From an archaeon GW2011_AR15 (GTDB lineage: Archaea > Nanobdellota > Nanobdellia > Woesearchaeales > GW2011-AR15): a DNA stretch of 64,000 nucleotides. Below are positions 50 through 7,737 of this stretch, in pieces. Each line of letters starts with the position of its first letter. Within the stretch, counting starts at the first letter, position 1. The notes beneath the pieces were generated by a model. The model was not told the origin of the DNA. It made no database searches and was given only the letters and a program-made list of their open reading frames with translations. The stretch is from positions 1 through 64,000 of the forward strand of contig CP010425.1 of assembly GCA_000830295.1 (NCBI GenBank), given 5' to 3'. The translations under genes were made by a program, and so were the position numbers.

Positions 50-589
50 ATGCCCAAATCCAAAGGTAGAATTAAATCGCAAAAATATGTTAAAGATTTA
101 CTAACTAAGATTACTAAAAAAAAGACTAAACAAGGAAAAGGTAATCAATTGATTGTTTCTGGAAAAATATATACAACCATAGAGAAGATGTCGGAAGCGT
201 ACACACACTTATATGTTGTAGAAAATACGCTGAGAGATTTAATTAGGAAGGTATTATCTAACGAAGTCGATTGGTGGAAGAATAAAATCCCTCCTGGAAT
301 TCAAAAAGAAGTTGAAGAAACTATCAAAAGAACCCCTTACCACGCAGCCAAGAGAAAAGATGAGTTAGAATATACTCATTTAGGACAATTAAAAGAGATA
401 ATTATTTGCAAAAATAATTGGAATGATTTTACGCCCCATCTAAACAACAAAGATATAACCTCATTTTCAGTATTTATAAACCAAGCAATTGCTTCTAGGA
501 ATGCTATCGGACACTGTATCCCATTAGAAAAACAAGATCTGAAGATTGTTGATGTTAGATTTCAAGATATTCTAAATATGATAAAATAA
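50..589 (+). CDS. Swt1-like HEPN domain protein (cassette 1)
   Basis: 179-aa ORF with AY..LY..EN.LR and an RxxxxH motif (RNAIGH) typical of HEPN domains; start uncertain. Confidence 0.7.
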   Translation: MPKSKGRIKSQKYVKDLLTKITKKKTKQGKGNQLIVSGKIYTTIEKMSEAYTHLYVVENTLRDLIRKVLSNEVDWWKNKIPPGIQKEVEETIKRTPYHAAKRKDELEYTHLGQLKEIIICKNNWNDFTPHLNNKDITSFSVFINQAIASRNAIGHCIPLEKQDLKIVDVRFQDILNMIK

Positions 590-619
590 GCAACCAAAAA
601 CTACGGCACCAATCGGATT

Positions 620-671
620 CCCACAAAAATTAAGAATTTTTGGGGCACAGAAAATCCCTGATTTTCTCGTG
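620..671. repeat. REP/MITE-like double-hairpin element, copy 1
   Basis: CCCACAAAAATTAAGAATTTTTGGGG followed by CACAGAAAATCCCTGATTTTCTCGTG; similar copy at 24582-24635. Confidence 0.75.
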
Positions 672-748
672 TTCGGCAGTAAGAAAACTTCTCCGTTCGC
701 TTCGCTCACTCCGACCACGCTGCGCTCTCACTCCGCTTCGCTTCGTTC

Positions 749-776
749 GGGTCGGCAAACAAGAATTAGCCAAAAT
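749..776 (+). repeat. dif-like site 1
   Basis: GGGTCGGCAAA CAAGAA TTAGCCAAAAT. Confidence 0.7.
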
Positions 777-811
777 TGAGTTTTCACTTAACAGAAGATG
801 AGGCAATGTTT

Positions 812-1147
812 TTAATGTGGTGCGTAGAAGATTATCAATGCGCCTAGAAGTGCTACTAATGCTCCAATAATTTCGTATCGGTCTGGACTTTTCTTATCTA
901 CAATAAATCCCCAGATGATTGAAGAAATAATAAAAATTCCTCCATACGTTGCGTAAACTCTGCCAAAATGAGCTGGTTGTAGTGTGGGAATTACTCCATA
1001 TACAAAAAGAACTAATCCACCAATCAATCCATATAACCACGTTCTTTTTTCCTTCAGCCATCGCCAGACTAAATATCCTCCTCCAATTTCAAATAGGGCT
1101 GCTGCAAAAAATAGTGCCAATGTTGTAATAATTAGTGTTGATGCCAT
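812..1147 (-). CDS. YnfA/UPF0060 family small membrane protein (cassette 2)
   Basis: [13 protein letters not shown] and [12 protein letters not shown] motifs; 4 TM segments. Confidence 0.9.
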
Positions 1148-1500
1148 ATTGATTCCTCCTTTCTTGGCCAGTAGAATATTATGCCAACACCAATAAGTGC
1201 GATGATACCCCCAATAACATCAAACTTGTCTGGCGCAATTCCTTCAAAAATCCATCCCCACAACATTGCCATAACAATGAACACTCCTCCATAAGCAGCA
1301 TAAATTCTATGAAAATGCGATGGCTGAAACGTTGGAACAATTCCATATAAGAATAGTACAAACCCGCCCACAACACCGATCATCCAGCTATAACTTTCTC
1401 GCAGCCATAACCAGACTAAATATCCTCCACCTATCTCGAAAAGTCCAGCTAGGAAAAAGAATAATATTGTTGTAGCAATCTTTTTTGTTTTTTGACGCAT
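1132..1500 (-). CDS. YnfA/UPF0060 family small membrane protein, paralog (cassette 2)
   Basis: [13 protein letters not shown] and [11 protein letters not shown] motifs. Confidence 0.9.
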
Positions 1501-1617
1501 TGATAATACAAAAGTTTCTATTTATATAAAACATCGCCTTTGATGAACGTGAAAACTCAACTTCTCCGTTCGCTACGCTCACTATGACCTCGCTGCGCTC
1601 TCCTCCCTTCGGTTGTC

Positions 1618-1645
1618 GGGTCGGCTAACAGGAATTATGCACAAT
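1618..1645 (+). repeat. dif-like site 2
   Basis: GGGTCGGCTAA CAGGAA TTATGCACAAT. Confidence 0.8.
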
Positions 1646-1659
1646 TGAGTTTTGAGGCA

Positions 1660-1884
1660 CTAAAGAAGTTTAAAGAAATCCTCTCTACTTAACCCAGCTT
1701 GTCTAATAATAGCTCTCAATGTTCCTTTAGCGATTTCTTTATGATTTGGAACAGTCATTCTTCTGAAAGGTTCTTTATTTTGTCTTAGAATAATATGGCT
1801 TCCTGTTTGATGATCTATTTCATAGCCAAATTTTTTAAGAGCTTTAACAACTTCAAGTCCAGAAATAACAGGCAACTTAGGCAT
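1660..1884 (-). CDS. hicA: HicA family toxin (cassette 3)
   Basis: GSH motif and TVPNH...GTLRAIIRQAG. Confidence 0.92.
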   Translation of the reverse strand: MPKLPVISGLEVVKALKKFGYEIDHQTGSHIILRQNKEPFRRMTVPNHKEIAKGTLRAIIRQAGLSREDFFKLL

Positions 1885-2089
1885 GAATATCCACTACTTC
1901 TTCATCAATAGATGAAGGTATTGGTTCATTATGCTTTTTTAGGCTTTCCAGATAGCCTTTCATGGCATCTTTTATATTAACTATAGCTTCGCTTCTAGTT
2001 TTACCTTGAGAGATACAACCTGGTAATGTTGGACACTCAGCCACAAAGATACCATTCTCATCTTGTTCTAACATGACTCTAAATTTCAT
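1877..2089 (-). CDS. hicB: HicB family antitoxin (cassette 3)
   Basis: PTLPGCISQGKT..EA..NIKDA; ATG at 2089 follows an AGGTGAG RBS. Confidence 0.92.
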   Translation of the reverse strand: MKFRVMLEQDENGIFVAECPTLPGCISQGKTRSEAIVNIKDAMKGYLESLKKHNEPIPSSIDEEVVDIHA

Positions 2090-2237
2090 TATACTCACCT
2101 TTCATAAGAAAAGAAGGACTTCTTTAAATAAATTGTGCCTCAAAACCCAACTCTTCGTCGCTTCGCTCCTTGTCCTTTCATCTCTCAACTCGCCAAGAGT
2201 GACTTCACGCAGTTCGTCCTTGGCTCGTTGGAGGAAA

Positions 2238-2265
2238 GGAGCGCATAACATGAATTATACGCAAT
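2238..2265 (+). repeat. dif-like site 3
   Basis: GGAGCGCATAA CATGAA TTATACGCAAT; left arm matches the E. coli dif XerC arm GGTGCGCATAA at 10/11. Confidence 0.85.
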
Positions 2266-2282
2266 TGAAAAAGGGCAAAAAC

Positions 2283-2531
2283 TTACTGTTCATCCTTGTG
2301 ATAGATGTCTAAAAAAATAAGTAACTCTGCTTGTTTATCAAAAGAATAAGAGATTCTGGAAGGGGGCACATATAACTCTCTAGTCCCTTTTCTTCCATAT
2401 CTCATAGGTTTACCAATTTCTGGATTTTCAACTATTTTCTTAATTTGTTTAATTACTCTTTCTTTTAGAGAATTATCTTTAATTTTTGATAATGTCTTAA
2501 TAAAATTTGATTCTCTTTCAATCTCTAGCAT
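2283..2531 (-). CDS. RelE/ParE family toxin (cassette 4)
   Basis: 82 aa; NPEIGKPM...RELYV...RISY...IYHKD pattern. Confidence 0.85.
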   Translation of the reverse strand: MLEIERESNFIKTLSKIKDNSLKERVIKQIKKIVENPEIGKPMRYGRKGTRELYVPPSRISYSFDKQAELLIFLDIYHKDEQ

Positions 2532-2794
2532 TTTTCAAGCTCTTTAAGAAAATCATCTTTTGATAGAGATTCAAACTTACCATTTTCATACCTTTTCCAA
2601 GCTGCTTCGGTCCTTCTTGCAAATTCCAGATCTTCTTCAAGGTTCTTGTTCAGTTTGCTAGCTTTTTTAATAATTAACTGATCCTTATTCTTTATAACAA
2701 GCAACTTTTCACCTATATTAAACTCAGCTCTAAGATCGTTAGGTATAACAATCTGGCCTTTAGTACTCATTTTTGTGATTCCGACATCTATCAT
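2525..2794 (-). CDS. AbrB/MazE family antitoxin (cassette 4)
   Basis: KMSTKGQIVIP..LR swapped-hairpin motif; overlaps the toxin start. Confidence 0.88.
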   Translation of the reverse strand: MIDVGITKMSTKGQIVIPNDLRAEFNIGEKLLVIKNKDQLIIKKASKLNKNLEEDLEFARRTEAAWKRYENGKFESLSKDDFLKELEKC

Positions 2795-2901
2795 TTAACT
2801 CACCTAAGTAAGAATATTCTTACTGATTATTTAAATCTATCGTTTTTGCCCTTTTTCAACTCCTGCGAACATTCGCTTGCTGAATGTTCTCGGCCCTTTC
2901 A

Positions 2902-2929
2902 GAGGCGCATAACATGAATTAGTTTCAAT
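2902..2929 (+). repeat. dif-like site 4
   Basis: GAGGCGCATAA CATGAA TTAGTTTCAAT. Confidence 0.8.
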
Positions 2930-3013
2930 ATTACTCAAGCGACCCCCTAGAAAATCTTAACTGTTACCTTTATTGGCAAATTATATAAACGATGTAGTCC
3001 TAATCGGTTTCAA

Positions 3014-3430
3014 ATGGCAGAAAAATATCTTATCGATACTTCAATTTGGGTTGACCTTTATGAAGATAGAAAAGGCTACCAGAATGAGCCGTTAGGCGAT
3101 TTTGCTTTCAATCTATTCTTGATGATAAAAACAAAACAGGACAAGATTGCCATTACTGATCTCACCATCAGAGAATTAGAAATGAATTATTCAATGGAAG
3201 AGATAAATGGCATGATGAAGCCTTTCGAAGACATCCTGGAGAAACTAGTTGCTTCTAAAAAACAACGCGATGAGGCTAAACTATTGGCTAAAGAAAGAAA
3301 CGTGCCAAAAGGCGATGCTCTTCATGCAATCCTTGCAAGAGATAACAAATTCATCCTTGTATCAAGAGACAAGCACTTTAGAGAATTAACTAACATTTCA
3401 GAGCATCATAAACCTGAAGAGCTTATCTAA
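3014..3430 (+). CDS. PIN domain (VapC-like) nuclease (cassette 5)
   Basis: YLIDTSIW, DALHAILA and SRDKHF PIN motifs. Confidence 0.9.
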   Translation: MAEKYLIDTSIWVDLYEDRKGYQNEPLGDFAFNLFLMIKTKQDKIAITDLTIRELEMNYSMEEINGMMKPFEDILEKLVASKKQRDEAKLLAKERNVPKGDALHAILARDNKFILVSRDKHFRELTNISEHHKPEELI

Positions 3431-3683
3431 TCCTTTTATCAATCTCTTCAAAAGCTTTTTCCCTTATTCTTTCAAGCTCTTCATCGCTTGTTTCCTTCTT
3501 TGAAGCACCCTTCAATTTAGAAATCTCCATCATAGCTTCTTTTAATTTGGAAGCTTCCACTTTCTCTCTAAGGGCATTTCTAATGAACTCTGTCCTGCTC
3601 TGGTAGCCTTCTTTTTTCACAATAGTATCTATATTGTTCAGAAAACTATCTTCAAGTTTTAGACTTATCATTTCAGTAGTCAT
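3423..3683 (-). CDS. Ribbon-helix-helix (CopG) protein, putative antitoxin (cassette 5)
   Basis: ISLKL...ID..V...GYQSRTEFIRNALRE. Confidence 0.85.
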   Translation of the reverse strand: MTTEMISLKLEDSFLNNIDTIVKKEGYQSRTEFIRNALREKVEASKLKEAMMEISKLKGASKKETSDEELERIREKAFEEIDKRIR

Positions 3684-3845
3684 ATATCTATTGTATATAC
3701 AACAGATATATAAGCATTTCTATTTTTCTGCCATTCTCTAAGATATAATTGACGCTATAAATCTAACGTAGGGGGGGTCGCTTTCCGTCATACTCAAAAA
3801 TTTAATCTCAACAAGTTGAGTTAAATTTTTGGTTTTTCTTCGAAA

Positions 3846-3877
3846 AACTCGCATAACATGCATGCATTATATTCAAT
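3846..3877 (+). repeat. dif-like site 5 with a spacer lengthened by 4 nt
   Basis: AACTCGCATAA CATGCATGCA TTATATTCAAT. Confidence 0.75.
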
Positions 3878-3942
3878 TTTCGTGCATATATTTTTTTAAG
3901 GAGACCCAAAAAGCATACCTTATTTTTAAAGAAATATTCTAA

Positions 3943-4551
3943 TTATTTTTTTGTTCCTTGTATTATATACAAACTCGCTAACGTTGGATCTTGACTTGGA
4001 AATATTCTCTCTCCTTCAATACCCAAGTAATATTCTGTTTTGACTGAGAAATATTTGGCCATTGTCTCCACAATTCCAGATAAATCAGTGTGTCTAATCT
4101 TACTCATATATGAATCAGGATCTTGAGTCCACCTCTTGAAATGCTCTGATTTGGAATTAAGAAGCATTATTACAATTCTGCTATTTGGTCTTAAAACCCT
4201 GGCTGTTTCACGGACAGCTCTTTCATAATTATCAATGAATTGTAAAGATGCCACATAAATAGCAGCGTCAAAACTTGAATCTGAAAAATCCATATGTTCT
4301 GCAGATCCCACCACTGTCCTAATACTATCTGGAGCCCCATTTAAAGCTTCTTCAGAAACATCCAGTCCAGTTACATTATAACCATGCTCTGCTAATCCTC
4401 TTTCTATGATGGCCGGACCGCAACCTACACTTAAAACGTCTTTACAACCTTTTAGGGATTCTAAAAGATAATCCAATTCTTGTTCGAATACTTTTCTCCA
4501 AAATTCAGATTGACATGAGTCTAAATAGCCGGGCATATCATGAGTTAACAA
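3943..4551 (-). CDS. Class I SAM-dependent methyltransferase (cassette 6)
   Basis: VLSVGCGP, GLDVS, F.DSSFD and RVLRP motifs; start may be the ATG at 4536. Confidence 0.9.
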   Translation of the reverse strand: MLTHDMPGYLDSCQSEFWRKVFEQELDYLLESLKGCKDVLSVGCGPAIIERGLAEHGYNVTGLDVSEEALNGAPDSIRTVVGSAEHMDFSDSSFDAAIYVASLQFIDNYERAVRETARVLRPNSRIVIMLLNSKSEHFKRWTQDPDSYMSKIRHTDLSGIVETMAKYFSVKTEYYLGIEGERIFPSQDPTLASLYIIQGTKK

Positions 4552-4696
4552 CTTATAATATTTAAATAATTTGATTTTAATTACACATAAAGGCTATAGG
4601 GGTCTCACTGTTTTAAACTATGCACGAAAACTCTTCGGGATTTTTTTGCTTCGCAAAAAACTGCCTTGCAGGCTATCCCTCGTCCTCCTTTCAGTC

Positions 4697-4724
4697 GGGT
4701 CGGTTAACAGTGATTATGCGCAAT
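4697..4724 (+). repeat. dif-like site 6
   Basis: GGGTCGGTTAA CAGTGA TTATGCGCAAT. Confidence 0.8.
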
Positions 4725-4769
4725 ATTACTCGGGTGGGCTAAGATGTTTAAATAGAAGACAACAAAAAA

Positions 4770-4892
4770 TTATAATTCTCCAATGGCAGTCAAGAGCTTT
4801 TCGTGGCCTTTTACAAGATTCTTAAATCGCTCAATCTCTTCAGATACAATCTCCAATTTTTCCTTATCGTTTGAACTCTCTGATTTTCCCAT
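4770..4892 (-). CDS. 40-aa small protein, putative antitoxin for Doc (not in ORF track)
   Basis: Manual translation MGKSESSNDKEKLEIVSEEIERFKNLVKGHEKLLTAIGEL; overlaps the doc 3' end and fills the rest of cassette 7. Confidence 0.55.
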   Translation of the reverse strand: MGKSESSNDKEKLEIVSEEIERFKNLVKGHEKLLTAIGEL

Positions 4893-5262
4893 TTTTTATC
4901 CACTCCTTTATTTCTTCATCAGTATAATGATTTTCCCTGATGCCAGTCATGACTCTCGCATTTGCTGGGTCATCTTTGATGCCAAGTTTTGCCTTATTTG
5001 ATAAAATAAATTCTTTCATAGTTATAAATGCTGTCCTTCTGTTGCCGCTTGCAAAGGCATGTTTTTGAACTAATCCTTTTAGCAAAATTGCAGCTTTGTC
5101 GTATATATCTCCAACTTTATTTTTGCAATCGTTAAGGACATCATTTATCTTGCTGTAACTCAAAACTTTTGGCTGGTCTGCCTTTTTCACTTTTATGAAC
5201 TGCAAAGCTAAGTAGTTGTATTCTATTATCCTATCCGATGTTGGATAGACTATTTCTGCCAT
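4864..5262 (-). CDS. Fic/Doc family toxin (cassette 7)
   Basis: HAFASGNRRTA, a variant of the Fic/Doc motif. Confidence 0.88.
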   Translation of the reverse strand: MAEIVYPTSDRIIEYNYLALQFIKVKKADQPKVLSYSKINDVLNDCKNKVGDIYDKAAILLKGLVQKHAFASGNRRTAFITMKEFILSNKAKLGIKDDPANARVMTGIRENHYTDEEIKEWIKNGKIREFKR

Positions 5263-5374
5263 TGAGTATACTATTTAAAAACAACTATATAAATATTGTT
5301 TTTATGAATGTTTGTCGTTCTATGTTTCACTCTATTTTACGCCTACCCTGCGTCATACTGTCCGTTCGCTTCGC

Positions 5375-5402
5375 TCACCGCATAACATGAATTATGTTCA
5401 AT
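5375..5402 (+). repeat. dif-like site 7
   Basis: TCACCGCATAA CATGAA TTATGTTCAAT; right arm matches the E. coli dif XerD arm TTATGTTAAAT at 10/11. Confidence 0.85.
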
Positions 5403-5500
5403 TGTGTTTAAGTTCTAAATTACGGTAGCTGGGGGGAGTCCGGGTGCTTCGCACATTCCAAAACAAAACGTTTTTATAGAATCTTTAAAACATATCTGGC

Positions 5501-6232
5501 ATGGCAGAATTGTTATTTTTCCTCTTGGCTTTTGTAGCAGAAGTAATTGGAACTATTGCTGGTTTTGGCTCTTCAACTATATTTTTGCCTCTCGCCCTGT
5601 TTTTTGTAGATTTTAAAACTGCATTAATCCTTGTTGCATTTTTTCACATTTTTGGCAACTTGGGCAGGATAACATTCTTCCGTCATGGGCTTGATAAAAA
5701 ACTAATTCTGGTTTTCGGCGTACCCAGTGTTTTATTAACTGTCTTTGGCGCACTATTGGTAAACTACACCCCGCAGGATATCCTAAAATTTGTTTTGGGC
5801 ATCTTTTTGCTAGTATTCTCCATAACTTCATTGATAAAACCAGATTTAAAATTCAAACCTTCAAGAAAAAATGCGGTCATCGGCGGAGGTTTGTCAGGAT
5901 TTTTGGCAGGTTTAATTGGTACTGGAGGTGCTTTAAGAGGCGCATTTCTGACAGCATTTAACCTAAAAAAAGAGAATTACATAGCGACTGCGGCGGCCAT
6001 CGCACTTGCTGTAGATATAACCAGAATCCCAATCTATTTTGGGAGCGGATTTCTTGGACAACAATTTTATTTGTATCTTCCATTGCTTTTTGTAATTGCC
6101 ATTGCCGGCTCATTTACTGGCAAAAAGATTGTTGATAAAATACCCCAGCAATCATTTAGAAAATTTGTTTTGACAGTAATTGCAATAGTAAGTTTGAAAT
6201 TTATTTATGATGGAATTTTATTCTTTTTGTAG
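5501..6232 (+). CDS. Sulfite exporter TauE/SafE family membrane protein (cassette 8)
   Basis: GTIAGFGSS and GFLAGLIGTGG repeats; about 8 TM segments. Confidence 0.88.
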   Translation: MAELLFFLLAFVAEVIGTIAGFGSSTIFLPLALFFVDFKTALILVAFFHIFGNLGRITFFRHGLDKKLILVFGVPSVLLTVFGALLVNYTPQDILKFVLGIFLLVFSITSLIKPDLKFKPSRKNAVIGGGLSGFLAGLIGTGGALRGAFLTAFNLKKENYIATAAAIALAVDITRIPIYFGSGFLGQQFYLYLPLLFVIAIAGSFTGKKIVDKIPQQSFRKFVLTVIAIVSLKFIYDGILFFL

Positions 6233-6393
6233 GCGTTCCACTCTTTTTTTAGAAAAAAGAAACAAAAAATCTGACGCCCCTCTCTCGTCCTTCAGACATA
6301 TACACTCCCTGCGGTCGGATTTATCAGTAATCCAAAAACTCTAAAATTTTCCTTCGGAACGTTGCACTAAATTTTAGGTCTTCCCGTTGGTCA

Positions 6394-6421
6394 GATGAAT
6401 ATAACATGGCTTAAATGGCAA
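6394..6421 (+). repeat. dif-like site 8, array/backbone boundary
   Basis: GATGAATATAA CATGGC TTAAATGGCAA; the right arm differs from the internal sites and housekeeping genes follow. Confidence 0.7.
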
Positions 6422-6459
6422 GCTTTTTATAATCTCTTTAAATCAATAAACCAGGGTGA

Positions 6460-7737
<1,278 letters not shown>

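Follow-up and report, generated by a model that had tools for sequence, protein, structure and literature searches.

Gene cassettes bounded by halves of putative cassette-specific palindromes in an array beside a XerA-like recombinase gene of the archaeon GW2011_AR15

The first 64 kb of the single 1,157,790-bp contig (CP010425.1) of the archaeon GW2011_AR15 (Woesearchaeales; assembly GCA_000830295.1) carry, close to their start, an array of gene cassettes separated by dif-like sites. This stretch of 64,000 nt, taken as a whole, is referred to as the window. A sequence-only reading of the window noted that every complete cassette has a terminal inverted repeat of its own, anchored by AAT at the left end and by ACT at the right end. 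The observation of private terminal inverted repeats is confirmed here. Moreover, comparison of sequences establishes an anatomy in which the cassettes lie between the halves of extended palindromes private to them, the predicted crossover being at the palindrome's centre, and in which the arrays stand beside a gene for a XerA-like tyrosine recombinase. The DNA upstream of the window is an assembly gap, with 100 N at the contig end.

In each site core, six central bases separate a left arm that terminates in TAA from a right arm of the form TTA-N5-AAT. A structured insert (H) of 37-107 nt, with one to three hairpins, lies between the inner eight bases of the left arm and ACT. Outside the core, the cassette-specific sequence at the left end of a cassette is termed the left outer arm (X) and its partner at the right end the right outer arm (X'). 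Sites were scored with a position weight matrix, used instead of a loose regular expression that gave mostly noise. The features of the array are as follows (window coordinates).

674..687, plus strand: right arm X' of cassette 0, an incomplete cassette with its left end in the gap; an identical 16-mer ends the homologous cassette of a relative (G152)
687..776, plus strand: site S1, with ACT at 687-689, structured insert H and a dif-like core ending AAT at 776; site-matrix score only 9.2
776..787, plus strand: left arm X of cassette 1, complement of 1549-1560 at 12/12 positions
812..1500, minus strand: cargo of cassette 1, two YnfA/UPF0060 genes at 812-1147 and 1132-1500 (PF02694, E 3.5e-42 and 6.3e-38)
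1549..1560, plus strand: right arm X' of cassette 1, then CT (from the end-pairing scores)
1560..1645, plus strand: site S2; matrix score 25.1, 5' part 91% identical to S1
1645..1660, plus strand: left arm X of cassette 2, complement of 2135-2150 at 15/16 positions
1660..2098, minus strand: cargo of cassette 2, HicA toxin and HicB antitoxin (PF07927, E 7.5e-20; PF15919, E 1.5e-9)
2135..2150, plus strand: right arm X' of cassette 2, inverted repeat with 1645-1660
2150..2265, plus strand: site S3, with a long hairpin in H; matrix score 28.4, H fold -13.7 kcal/mol, z -2.5
2265..2282, plus strand: left arm X of cassette 3, complement of 2842-2859 at 18/18 positions
2283..2794, minus strand: cargo of cassette 3, ParE-like toxin and MazE/AbrB-like antitoxin (family scan)
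2842..2859, plus strand: right arm X' of cassette 3, inverted repeat with 2265-2282
2859..2929, plus strand: site S4; matrix score 24.6
2930..2947, plus strand: left end of cassette 4, a type-B module ATTACTC at 2930-2936 and the variable arm at 2937-2947; pairing at offset 8
3014..3683: cargo of cassette 4, a PIN-domain gene (plus strand, 3014-3430) and a ribbon-helix-helix gene (minus strand, 3423-3683) (family scan)
3773..3792, plus strand: right end of cassette 4, the variable arm at 3773-3783 and then the type-B module TCCGTCATA
3792..3877, plus strand: site S5, its core with four additional central bases (CATGCATGCA); undetected by the site matrix
3877..3888, plus strand: left arm X of cassette 5, complement of 4619-4630 at 12/12 positions
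3943..4551, minus strand: cargo of cassette 5, a class I S-adenosylmethionine-dependent methyltransferase (PF08241, E 1.1e-19)
4619..4630, plus strand: right arm X' of cassette 5; community contigs diverge at 4629/4630
4630..4724, plus strand: site S6; matrix score 26.1, 81% identical to a differently flanked site of a relative (G115)
4725..4739, plus strand: left end of cassette 6, a type-B module and then the variable arm
4864..5262, minus strand: cargo of cassette 6, a Fic/Doc-family gene (PF02661, E 2.8e-7)
5341..5357, plus strand: right end of cassette 6, the variable arm (7/8 paired) and then the type-B module
5357..5402, plus strand: site S7, the shortest site, 46 nt; matrix score 28.6
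5402..6304, plus strand: distal TauE/SafE cassette (cassette 7); left arm without a matching right arm
6304..6331, plus strand: degenerate site S8, core partly missing
6338..6422, plus strand: terminal site S9, core ending CAAG rather than CAAT; purA at 6478, H 95% identical to sites of the relatives G115 and G039

Cognate pairing of the cassette ends was assessed by aligning the 33 nt from AAT with the reverse complement of about 130 nt before each next core. Cassettes 1-7 score 24, 28, 36, 22, 24, 18 and 14, against a mean of 13.8 (standard deviation 1.9, maximum 19) for the 49 non-cognate pairings, and five of the seven score above all 49. The pairs that the sequence-only reading had listed are all present, with 12/12, 15/16, 18/18, 11/11 and 12/12 matches (the 11/11 pair being 2937-2947 with 3773-3783). 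AAT stands before all seven left arms and ACT after all eight right arms (687, 1560, 2150, 2859, 3792, 4630, 5357 and 6304). The pairing of 4725-4739 had rightly been called imperfect; with 5341-5357, it comprises 7/8 outer pairs together with a conserved imperfect helix. The repeat had been described as beginning at the end of each site. In fact it does not start there but runs through AAT and ACT into the 8-bp inner arms of the core.

Folding of junctions circularised in silico, proposed earlier as a check, makes the cognate junction the most stable one in six of the seven cassettes on the bottom strand and in five on the top strand. The cognate pair of cassette 6 does not come first in the unanchored local alignment (score 18), yet its junction is the best of seven in the fold test. 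The TauE cassette (5402-6304) fails this test on both strands. Its pairing, earlier described as weaker, does not rise above background (score 14), and two to three of its six non-cognate partners fold equally well. Having a left arm but no matching right arm, this cassette is probably decayed; the same left arm recurs in G115, there with an intact partner. Chance as the origin of the repeats is excluded by the non-cognate controls. The idea of a small element inserted into a pre-existing hairpin was likewise rejected, the complementary partners flanking the cassette and not the site.

Terminal inverted repeats are a hallmark of DNA transposons, and the units might be unrelated transposons or miniature inverted-repeat transposable elements, or else their repeats might be fortuitous. 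However, the repeat sequences differ from cassette to cassette, the units stand head to tail at one locus with one site family separating them, and the scanned cassette genes include no transposase family in Pfam and encode no recombinase. Together with the non-cognate controls, which rule out chance, these features leave this explanation extremely improbable. The Rfam search returned no match above the gathering score and ARAGORN no tRNA. The two YnfA/UPF0060 paralogues of cassette 1 overlap in tandem, and their DNA is 72% identical over 85 nt.

The complementarity continues inside the core. In the right arm of site k, the five variable bases complement those in the left arm of site k+1 at 3.93 of 5 positions on average, with 13 of 29 pairs perfect; one of these 29 does not correspond to a real cassette, because the matrix overlooked S5, and it was scored 0 and retained as a miss. 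The two arms within one site agree at only 2.48 and 2.41 of 5 positions, and random non-cognate pairs at 2.28 (n=812). The summed complementarity was reached by 0 of 20000 permutations. Because the arms match across a cassette and not within a site, the right arm would travel with the right-hand cassette and the left arm with the left-hand one. This places strand exchange within the six central bases or at their borders, and an excised circle would therefore carry a palindromic core. Outward of the core, the pairing of AAT and ACT includes an invariant C.A mismatch, which on the bottom strand reads as a G.T wobble; beyond it X pairs with X', so that the cognate complementarity amounts to 8 + 3 + 9-18 bp. 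The types of arm mismatch give no clear strand signal beyond the universal ACT/AAT (5 of 16 are bottom-strand G.T and 2 top-strand). An 11-6-11 layout is described for bacterial and archaeal dif in parts of PMC8371274. Here, the dif-like 11-6-11 layout is present in the reconstructed circle only, and even there the left arm is interrupted 8:3 by the insert. In the S5 core (3851-3877), CATG occurs twice and the centre measures 10 nt rather than 6; the flanking cassettes 4 and 5 retain perfect outer arms.

Just upstream of the window, the sequence-only reading had predicted a further left end, AAT followed by roughly TTTCTTACTGCCG, as the partner of the right arm of cassette 0. This left end is missing from the present assembly because the window begins at the contig end, beside the 100-N gap; at up to 1 mismatch, this genome (G000) has no match to its arm X, the complement of 674-687, which presumably lies in the gap. 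In G152, the prediction holds at 15 of 16 positions. There the counterpart of the predicted 16-mer stands directly after the recombinase-adjacent site, and the partner of this counterpart, 6.4 kb farther downstream, agrees with window 672-687 at all 16 nt and precedes CT, an insert and a core. The flanks of that right arm are 85% identical to the window over 33 nt and 76% over 107 nt. This match is one case, though predicted in advance. The same cassette, the first of its array (L061, G152:C4, 1394-7857), holds three large minus-strand open reading frames (ORFs) of 583, 837 and 456 codons, and its length of 6.4 kb means that cassettes are not always small. A hairpin-forming segment of 51-56 nt that precedes the right arm of cassette 0 in the window (620-671) is absent from the homologous cassette end of G152.

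Homologues of the recombinase, searched for with the recombinase itself, are present in 142 of 201 genomes of the same order (three unpublished genomes in the tally). In 8 of 16 loci of relatives, at least three strong sites in direct orientation stand beside the recombinase gene, in its upstream DNA; a ninth locus, L062, has a variant core. Site-matrix scores in these arrays range from 17 to 29. Nothing in the remainder of G000 scores above about 16, and its 1.14 Mb outside the array contain, on both strands, 2 matches at a score of at least 16. As in the window, all sites in the relatives' arrays lie on one strand as direct repeats. purA stands beside the array in none of the 16 relatives' loci, so the flank is not conserved.

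The test of end pairing was extended to 28 cassettes from the window and seven relatives (eight genomes). For 22 of the 28, the cassette's own far end is the best partner among the 28 candidates, with the 756 non-cognate scores reaching 25 at most (99th percentile 23). Sixteen of these 22 start at the T of AAT, and CT comes next in all 16; of the remainder, four have a second type of conserved end, one starts at offset 2 and one looks spurious. The 17 outer stems of the first type (type A) measure 9-18 bp, with a median of 14, contain only 2 isolated mismatches and carry ACT/AAT in 15 of 17 cases. In G115, whose genome is complete, the rule applies to 8 of about 11 cassettes (13-14 of 14 matches), beginning at the recombinase-adjacent site. 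Ends of the second type (type B) have ATTACTC after AAT, imperfectly paired with TCCGTCATA or TGCGTCATA before CT; in the window these are 2930-2936 with 3784-3792 (cassette 4) and 4725-4731 with 5349-5357 (cassette 6). Type B recurs in at least four relatives, and its helix shows identical mismatches in the window and at the loci L058, L059, L060 and L070. The proposal that pairing rather than sequence is conserved is thus borne out in independent arrays of related genomes.

At L067 (G026:C5, about 394-700, minus strand), three tandem units of 100 nt contain barely more than a site and resemble gene-less "empty" cassettes. The possibility that the site core is the chromosomal dif of these relatives was considered and dropped: a 15-mer of the core (1 mismatch) matched in 15 of 61 genomes, G000 included, as single sites without arrays, several of them apparently inside conserved coding regions. 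An exact 20-base pattern occurred in one stretch of a genome contig, from a Bacteroidota metagenome-assembled genome (MAG), and in four stretches of metagenome contigs, without arrays, and these were taken as chance.

The insert H is structured as well. Against mononucleotide shuffles, 16 of 21 H regions fold better than expected (z < -2), with a mean z of -2.77. The stem of the core-adjacent hairpin, compared over 8 sites from 5 genomes, carries compensatory changes at 7 of its 9 pairs and encloses a conserved loop, ACTTYGT; by inspection, other site types likewise combine covarying stems with conserved loops, though different ones. Across 1316 nt of H, TTCG was counted 28 times but its complement CGAA 3 times, a strand asymmetry. 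The covarying hairpins and the 28 to 3 bias are what would be expected if the end pairing acted in RNA, as a long-range transcript stem that stabilises or processes mRNA, with the hairpins of H as UUCG tetraloops or terminators. Several features argue otherwise. The right arm of cassette 1 (1549-1560) lies upstream of a TATA-like stretch taken, by eye, as a promoter, and hence outside the mRNA. In addition, the arms abut AAT/ACT exactly in 16 of 16 type-A cases and run on into the predicted recombinase-binding arms, which ties them to recombination. No Rfam family matches, and no RNA run contains the region. A role in RNA is for these reasons considered very unlikely.

On the recombinase side of the gap, the last kilobases of the contig hold housekeeping ORFs read as aIF2-alpha, ribosomal protein S27e and PheRS (names assigned by eye from the ORFs). 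The tyrosine recombinase ORF (G000:C1:1153839-1154795, minus strand, 319 codons) lies at the opposite contig end from the window. No other full tyrosine recombinase is encoded in the genome; one weak fragment, a phage-integrase domain match in a 166-codon frame (G000:C1:119548-119967), scores 25.5 bits, below the cut-off, and may be a remnant. The closest named homologues of the recombinase come from Woesearchaeota and Nanoarchaeota MAGs, where they are annotated as XerD, XerA or tyrosine recombinase. A primary dif-like site (G000:C1:1154867-1154889), with a distinct and conserved left half, stands 71 nt upstream of the longest ORF of the recombinase. A similar motif precedes the gene by at most 450 nt in 17 of 29 recombinase loci examined, the best matches of the search (28 of relatives and the own locus; the unpublished L045 was left out). 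In 8 of the 28 relatives, fewer than 450 nt of upstream sequence are available before the locus breaks off, a pattern to be expected where repeats follow.

Between the primary site and the gap (G000:C1:1154890-1157690) lie an AbrB/MazE-like gene, a small helix-turn-helix gene, a SwaI-like endonuclease and an Eco57I-like methylase. This interval yielded no additional site, so the first cassette would be at least 2.8 kb long and would run into the gap. Its right arm is not found in the G000 assembly at up to 1 mismatch and is presumably in the gap as well. The cumulative GC skew of the chromosome shows no clear terminus. In five of the seven window cassettes, the genes point towards the recombinase. 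As part of the reading developed below, the window probably represents the distal part of an array served by the XerA-type tyrosine recombinase encoded across the gap. At the array end (6304-6422), S8 is followed by six bases and then by S9; judged by eye, the right arm of S9 roughly complements the conserved left half of the primary site, as if the array stood within one ancestral palindrome.

The top curated family matches of the recombinase are the integron integrase model TIGR02249 (186.2 bits, cut-off 265) and NF040815 XerA_Arch (181.6 bits, cut-off 220). With Pyrococcus abyssi XerA (4a8e), it aligns over residues 46-294 (249 residues, E 7.5e-37) without large gaps, and the motifs GLRVGE, HxxRH (HMFRHSF) and GY of the catalytic region align between the two. 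With VchIntIA (2a3v), the alignment breaks at query residue 213 and resumes at 223, facing chain residues 183-238, so that ten residues of the recombinase stand opposite 55 of Vibrio cholerae IntIA. We take this stretch of VchIntIA to be the IntI-specific domain. In these alignments, the recombinase resembles XerA and lacks the IntI-specific insert, and the system is on this account not a canonical integron.

The alternative of a canonical archaeal integron, with attC sites acting as folded bottom strands, an IntI enzyme and crossover at the base of the hairpin (G/TT), has to be weighed against these data. Right arms mostly end AA followed by the C of ACT, which resembles an inverse core site, and TIGR02249, "integron integrase", is the best NCBIfam match of the enzyme. 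Integrons with attC and IntI are reported in Archaea, Nanoarchaeota included (Ghaly et al. 2022, PMC9668308). On the other side, the IntI-specific insert is absent, and 186.2 bits fall short of the cut-off of 265. The arms match across the cassette rather than within the site, which places the crossover at the apex and not at the base; the flanks of one in-array site pair at background level only; the right boundary is ATT and not GTT; and the genes of five of the seven cassettes read towards the recombinase. A canonical integron is accordingly judged highly improbable.

Contigs from four metagenome runs diverge from the window exactly at 4629/4630 and 6337/6338, at the A of ACT. Summed contig depth is about 10-30 on unique parts and cassette genes versus 100-1282 on site parts (high-depth bins 469-936, 1405-1638, 4447-4680 and 6319-6552). 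The highest value, 1282 in run X1, falls in bin 6319-6552, and many contigs diverge at 6337/6338. The raised depth indicates that many cassettes or organisms of the sampled groundwater and soil communities share the site modules, which appear to be present there in high copy. The segment at 620-671 is skipped in contigs of all four runs, at depths of about 4 to 123, and at several of the joins the intervening sequence is unspecified or consists of 3-5 other letters. One contig of run X1 extends 1518 nt past the window start.

Taken together, these data make it probable, in our judgement, that the cassettes are integrated circles with one extended palindromic site each, that the halves of this site pair within one strand and that the recombinase reads bases as well as shape. 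In the circle, the order would be X' (9-18 nt, cassette-specific), ACT, H, the inner left arm N5-TAA, the 6-bp centre, the right arm TTA-N5-AAT and X. Strands would be exchanged in the 6-bp centre, as at dif, and integration would split the palindrome, its right half becoming the left end of the cassette and its left half the right end; the private terminal inverted repeat would result from this split. At some step, the halves would pair within one strand, either on the excised circle, as a branched hairpin or cruciform, or in single-stranded array DNA, as a panhandle across the cassette. Such a panhandle would contain one complete arm duplex between two centres and could yield a single-stranded circle. 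The recombinase would then recognize conserved bases plus shape. Since in-array sites would be hybrids of non-matching halves, only the two ends of the same cassette could rebuild a full site.

Movement of the cassettes as circles, by way of this enzyme, is suggested by their anatomy and by analogy with dif, with integrative mobile elements exploiting Xer (IMEX) and with integrons. We infer that the two halves pair within one strand from complementarity that is kept at sequence-free positions beyond the 11-bp footprint, with mismatches conserved, and from a structured, covarying insert inside one arm. The sequence-only reading held that the cassette ends must meet. The hairpin geometry that it proposed, with the spacer at the apex, is borne out by the covariation of the arms, and the meeting itself is an inference. 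Shape is read together with sequence by integron integrases at attC and by XerCD at the folded CTX-phage site. For archaeal dif, passages of PMC8371274 describe an 11-6-11 layout with cleavage at the spacer ends, for which stem-loop structure besides sequence seems important, and binding of stem-looped DNA by P. abyssi XerA, an affinity that is consistent with pairing within one strand. The Vibrio strand-biased circularizing integrative elements (SEs), as portrayed in part of PMC9345347, give a precedent for strand-biased circle formation by tyrosine recombinases.

The same split-palindrome anatomy could also be served by an enzyme that acts on duplex DNA only, the complementarity being a relic, for example of arm copying, or a product of concerted evolution. 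A central crossover in an 11-6-11 palindrome would be classical duplex Xer chemistry, as outlined in sections of PMC8371274; moreover, folding would put the exchange region in a loop, and no circle, panhandle or folded form has been observed. Yet the outer arms lie beyond the 11-bp footprint and are cassette-specific, and still the 17 stems, with their median of 14 bp, contain 2 mismatches. The right arm shared by G152 and G000 is identical over 16 nt, with flanks at 76-85% (a single case), and type-B ends retain the same mismatches across genomes. A left arm split 8:3 by an insert with covarying hairpins is also hard to explain on duplex chemistry. This duplex-only alternative therefore seems rather unlikely, though it deserves more weight than the others.

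Several observations weigh against pairing within one strand, or against the circles and the enzyme assigned to them. Folding would place the exchange region in a 6-nt hairpin loop, and no tyrosine recombinase is known to act on such a substrate. The assembled contigs of the four runs contain no circle junction, no empty site and no clean site-to-site deletion; the one long joint, from 737 to 5392, has 28 other letters between its sides and occurs in a single contig at depth 5.65. The recombinase scores below the curated cut-offs of both XerA_Arch and integron integrase, and adjacency and conservation alone link it to the array. Six of the 28 cassettes lack a top-ranked partner, as does the TauE cassette in the window. 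The arm test, with its mean of 3.93, is inflated by two pairs from tandem 100-nt units (L067, G026) and by two G115 pairs with identical arms. The z values of H refer to mononucleotide and not dinucleotide shuffles, and the TTCG bias could stem from RNA tetraloops or a protein-binding motif rather than from folded DNA.

If the halves do pair within one strand, a wider view is possible, which we put forward tentatively and would not hold to be the likelier outcome. Woesearchaeota, and possibly other DPANN archaea, may have built an integron-analogous gene capture on a housekeeping XerA/dif system, in which own-end pairing would serve as a private address choosing the half-sites to be joined. 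Single cassettes would be excised and re-inserted, possibly as single-stranded circles, by an exchange at the apex that is undescribed for tyrosine recombinases. If this is true, cassette capture by site-specific recombination arose at least twice, with IntI/attC and with a XerA-like enzyme and split dif-like sites in DPANN, and small-genome, host-dependent archaea gain a defined route to toxin-antitoxin, restriction-modification and transporter genes. A second family of natural recombination sites would also be added, one where sequence counts for less than shape and covariation, and such sites are relevant to recombinase mechanism and to the design of programmable recombination sites. Integron-finding software that needs IntI and attC models probably misses these arrays, and the array repeats also break metagenome assemblies, as in the 8 of 28 relatives' loci that end within 450 nt upstream of the recombinase.

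Among known systems, integrons resemble the present arrays in that a tyrosine recombinase gene adjoins a primary site, after which small cassettes, mostly promoter-carrying or toxin-antitoxin, stand head to tail. In both, the recombination sites conserve pairing and not sequence, the start of a cassette complements its own far end through the splitting of sites, and distal cassettes look decayed. In contrast to integrons, the recombinase here lacks the IntI-specific insert, the core is dif-like (11-6-11), and the predicted crossover lies at the apex of the fold. The cognate complementarity of 8 + 3 + 9-18 bp compares with about 6 bp in integrons; in addition, a structured insert splits one arm, and the genes of five of the seven window cassettes face the recombinase. 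Of four features by which integrons are recognized, three are absent: an IntI-type integrase with an additional domain near patch III, an attC-like imperfect palindrome within one site with AAC...GTT, and a crossover at the base (G/TT of R') that moves about 6 nt, since here the whole 11-nt right arm plus X would travel with the downstream cassette. The fourth, a primary site beside the integrase gene, has its analogue in the site upstream of the recombinase.

IMEX (the CTX, VGJ and TLC phages and the gonococcal island) likewise have no recombinase of their own, carry a dif-like site and integrate in tandem at the chromosomal Xer site. In the case of the CTX phage, the site is formed by folding of single-stranded DNA. 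IMEX differ in being phages or islands that depend on bacterial XerC/XerD heterodimers, and not arrays of many gene cassettes of 0.3-6 kb, and we know of no cassette-specific extended palindrome or split arm among them. The present cassettes lack a recombinase, and their dif-like sites start beside xerA, where the primary site is a candidate dif only. By analogy, the cassettes seem to behave like very small IMEX elements. The pdif sites of Acinetobacter alternate in orientation around plasmid modules, whereas the present sites form direct repeats only, in a chromosomal array beside the recombinase. Parts of PMC12907356 and PMC13141974 describe the Acinetobacter modules as small accessory units, often toxin-antitoxin, bounded by 11-6-11 Xer sites; module type and bounds are thus the same as here, but these parts do not report private inverted repeats that extend the arms. 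Dimer resolution by archaeal XerA at dif works with a single homodimeric Xer protein that has an affinity for stem-loops and with a palindromic 11-6-11 site cleaved at the spacer ends, features that the present system would share; it differs in having one site per chromosome and no cassettes, and split or outer arms are not described in the relevant passages of PMC8371274. The Vibrio SEs, in the portion of PMC9345347 that describes them, resemble the present cassettes in circle formation; they are 7 kb long, carry four genes of their own, two of them for recombinases, and form no arrays and no dif-like palindrome. No Xer- or dif-type cassette arrays in archaea were found in the literature searched, with the supplementary site tables of Ghaly et al. 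outside the search. Some of the Nanoarchaeota clusters of attC sites lacking integron integrases (CALIN) of Ghaly et al. might be arrays of the type described here.

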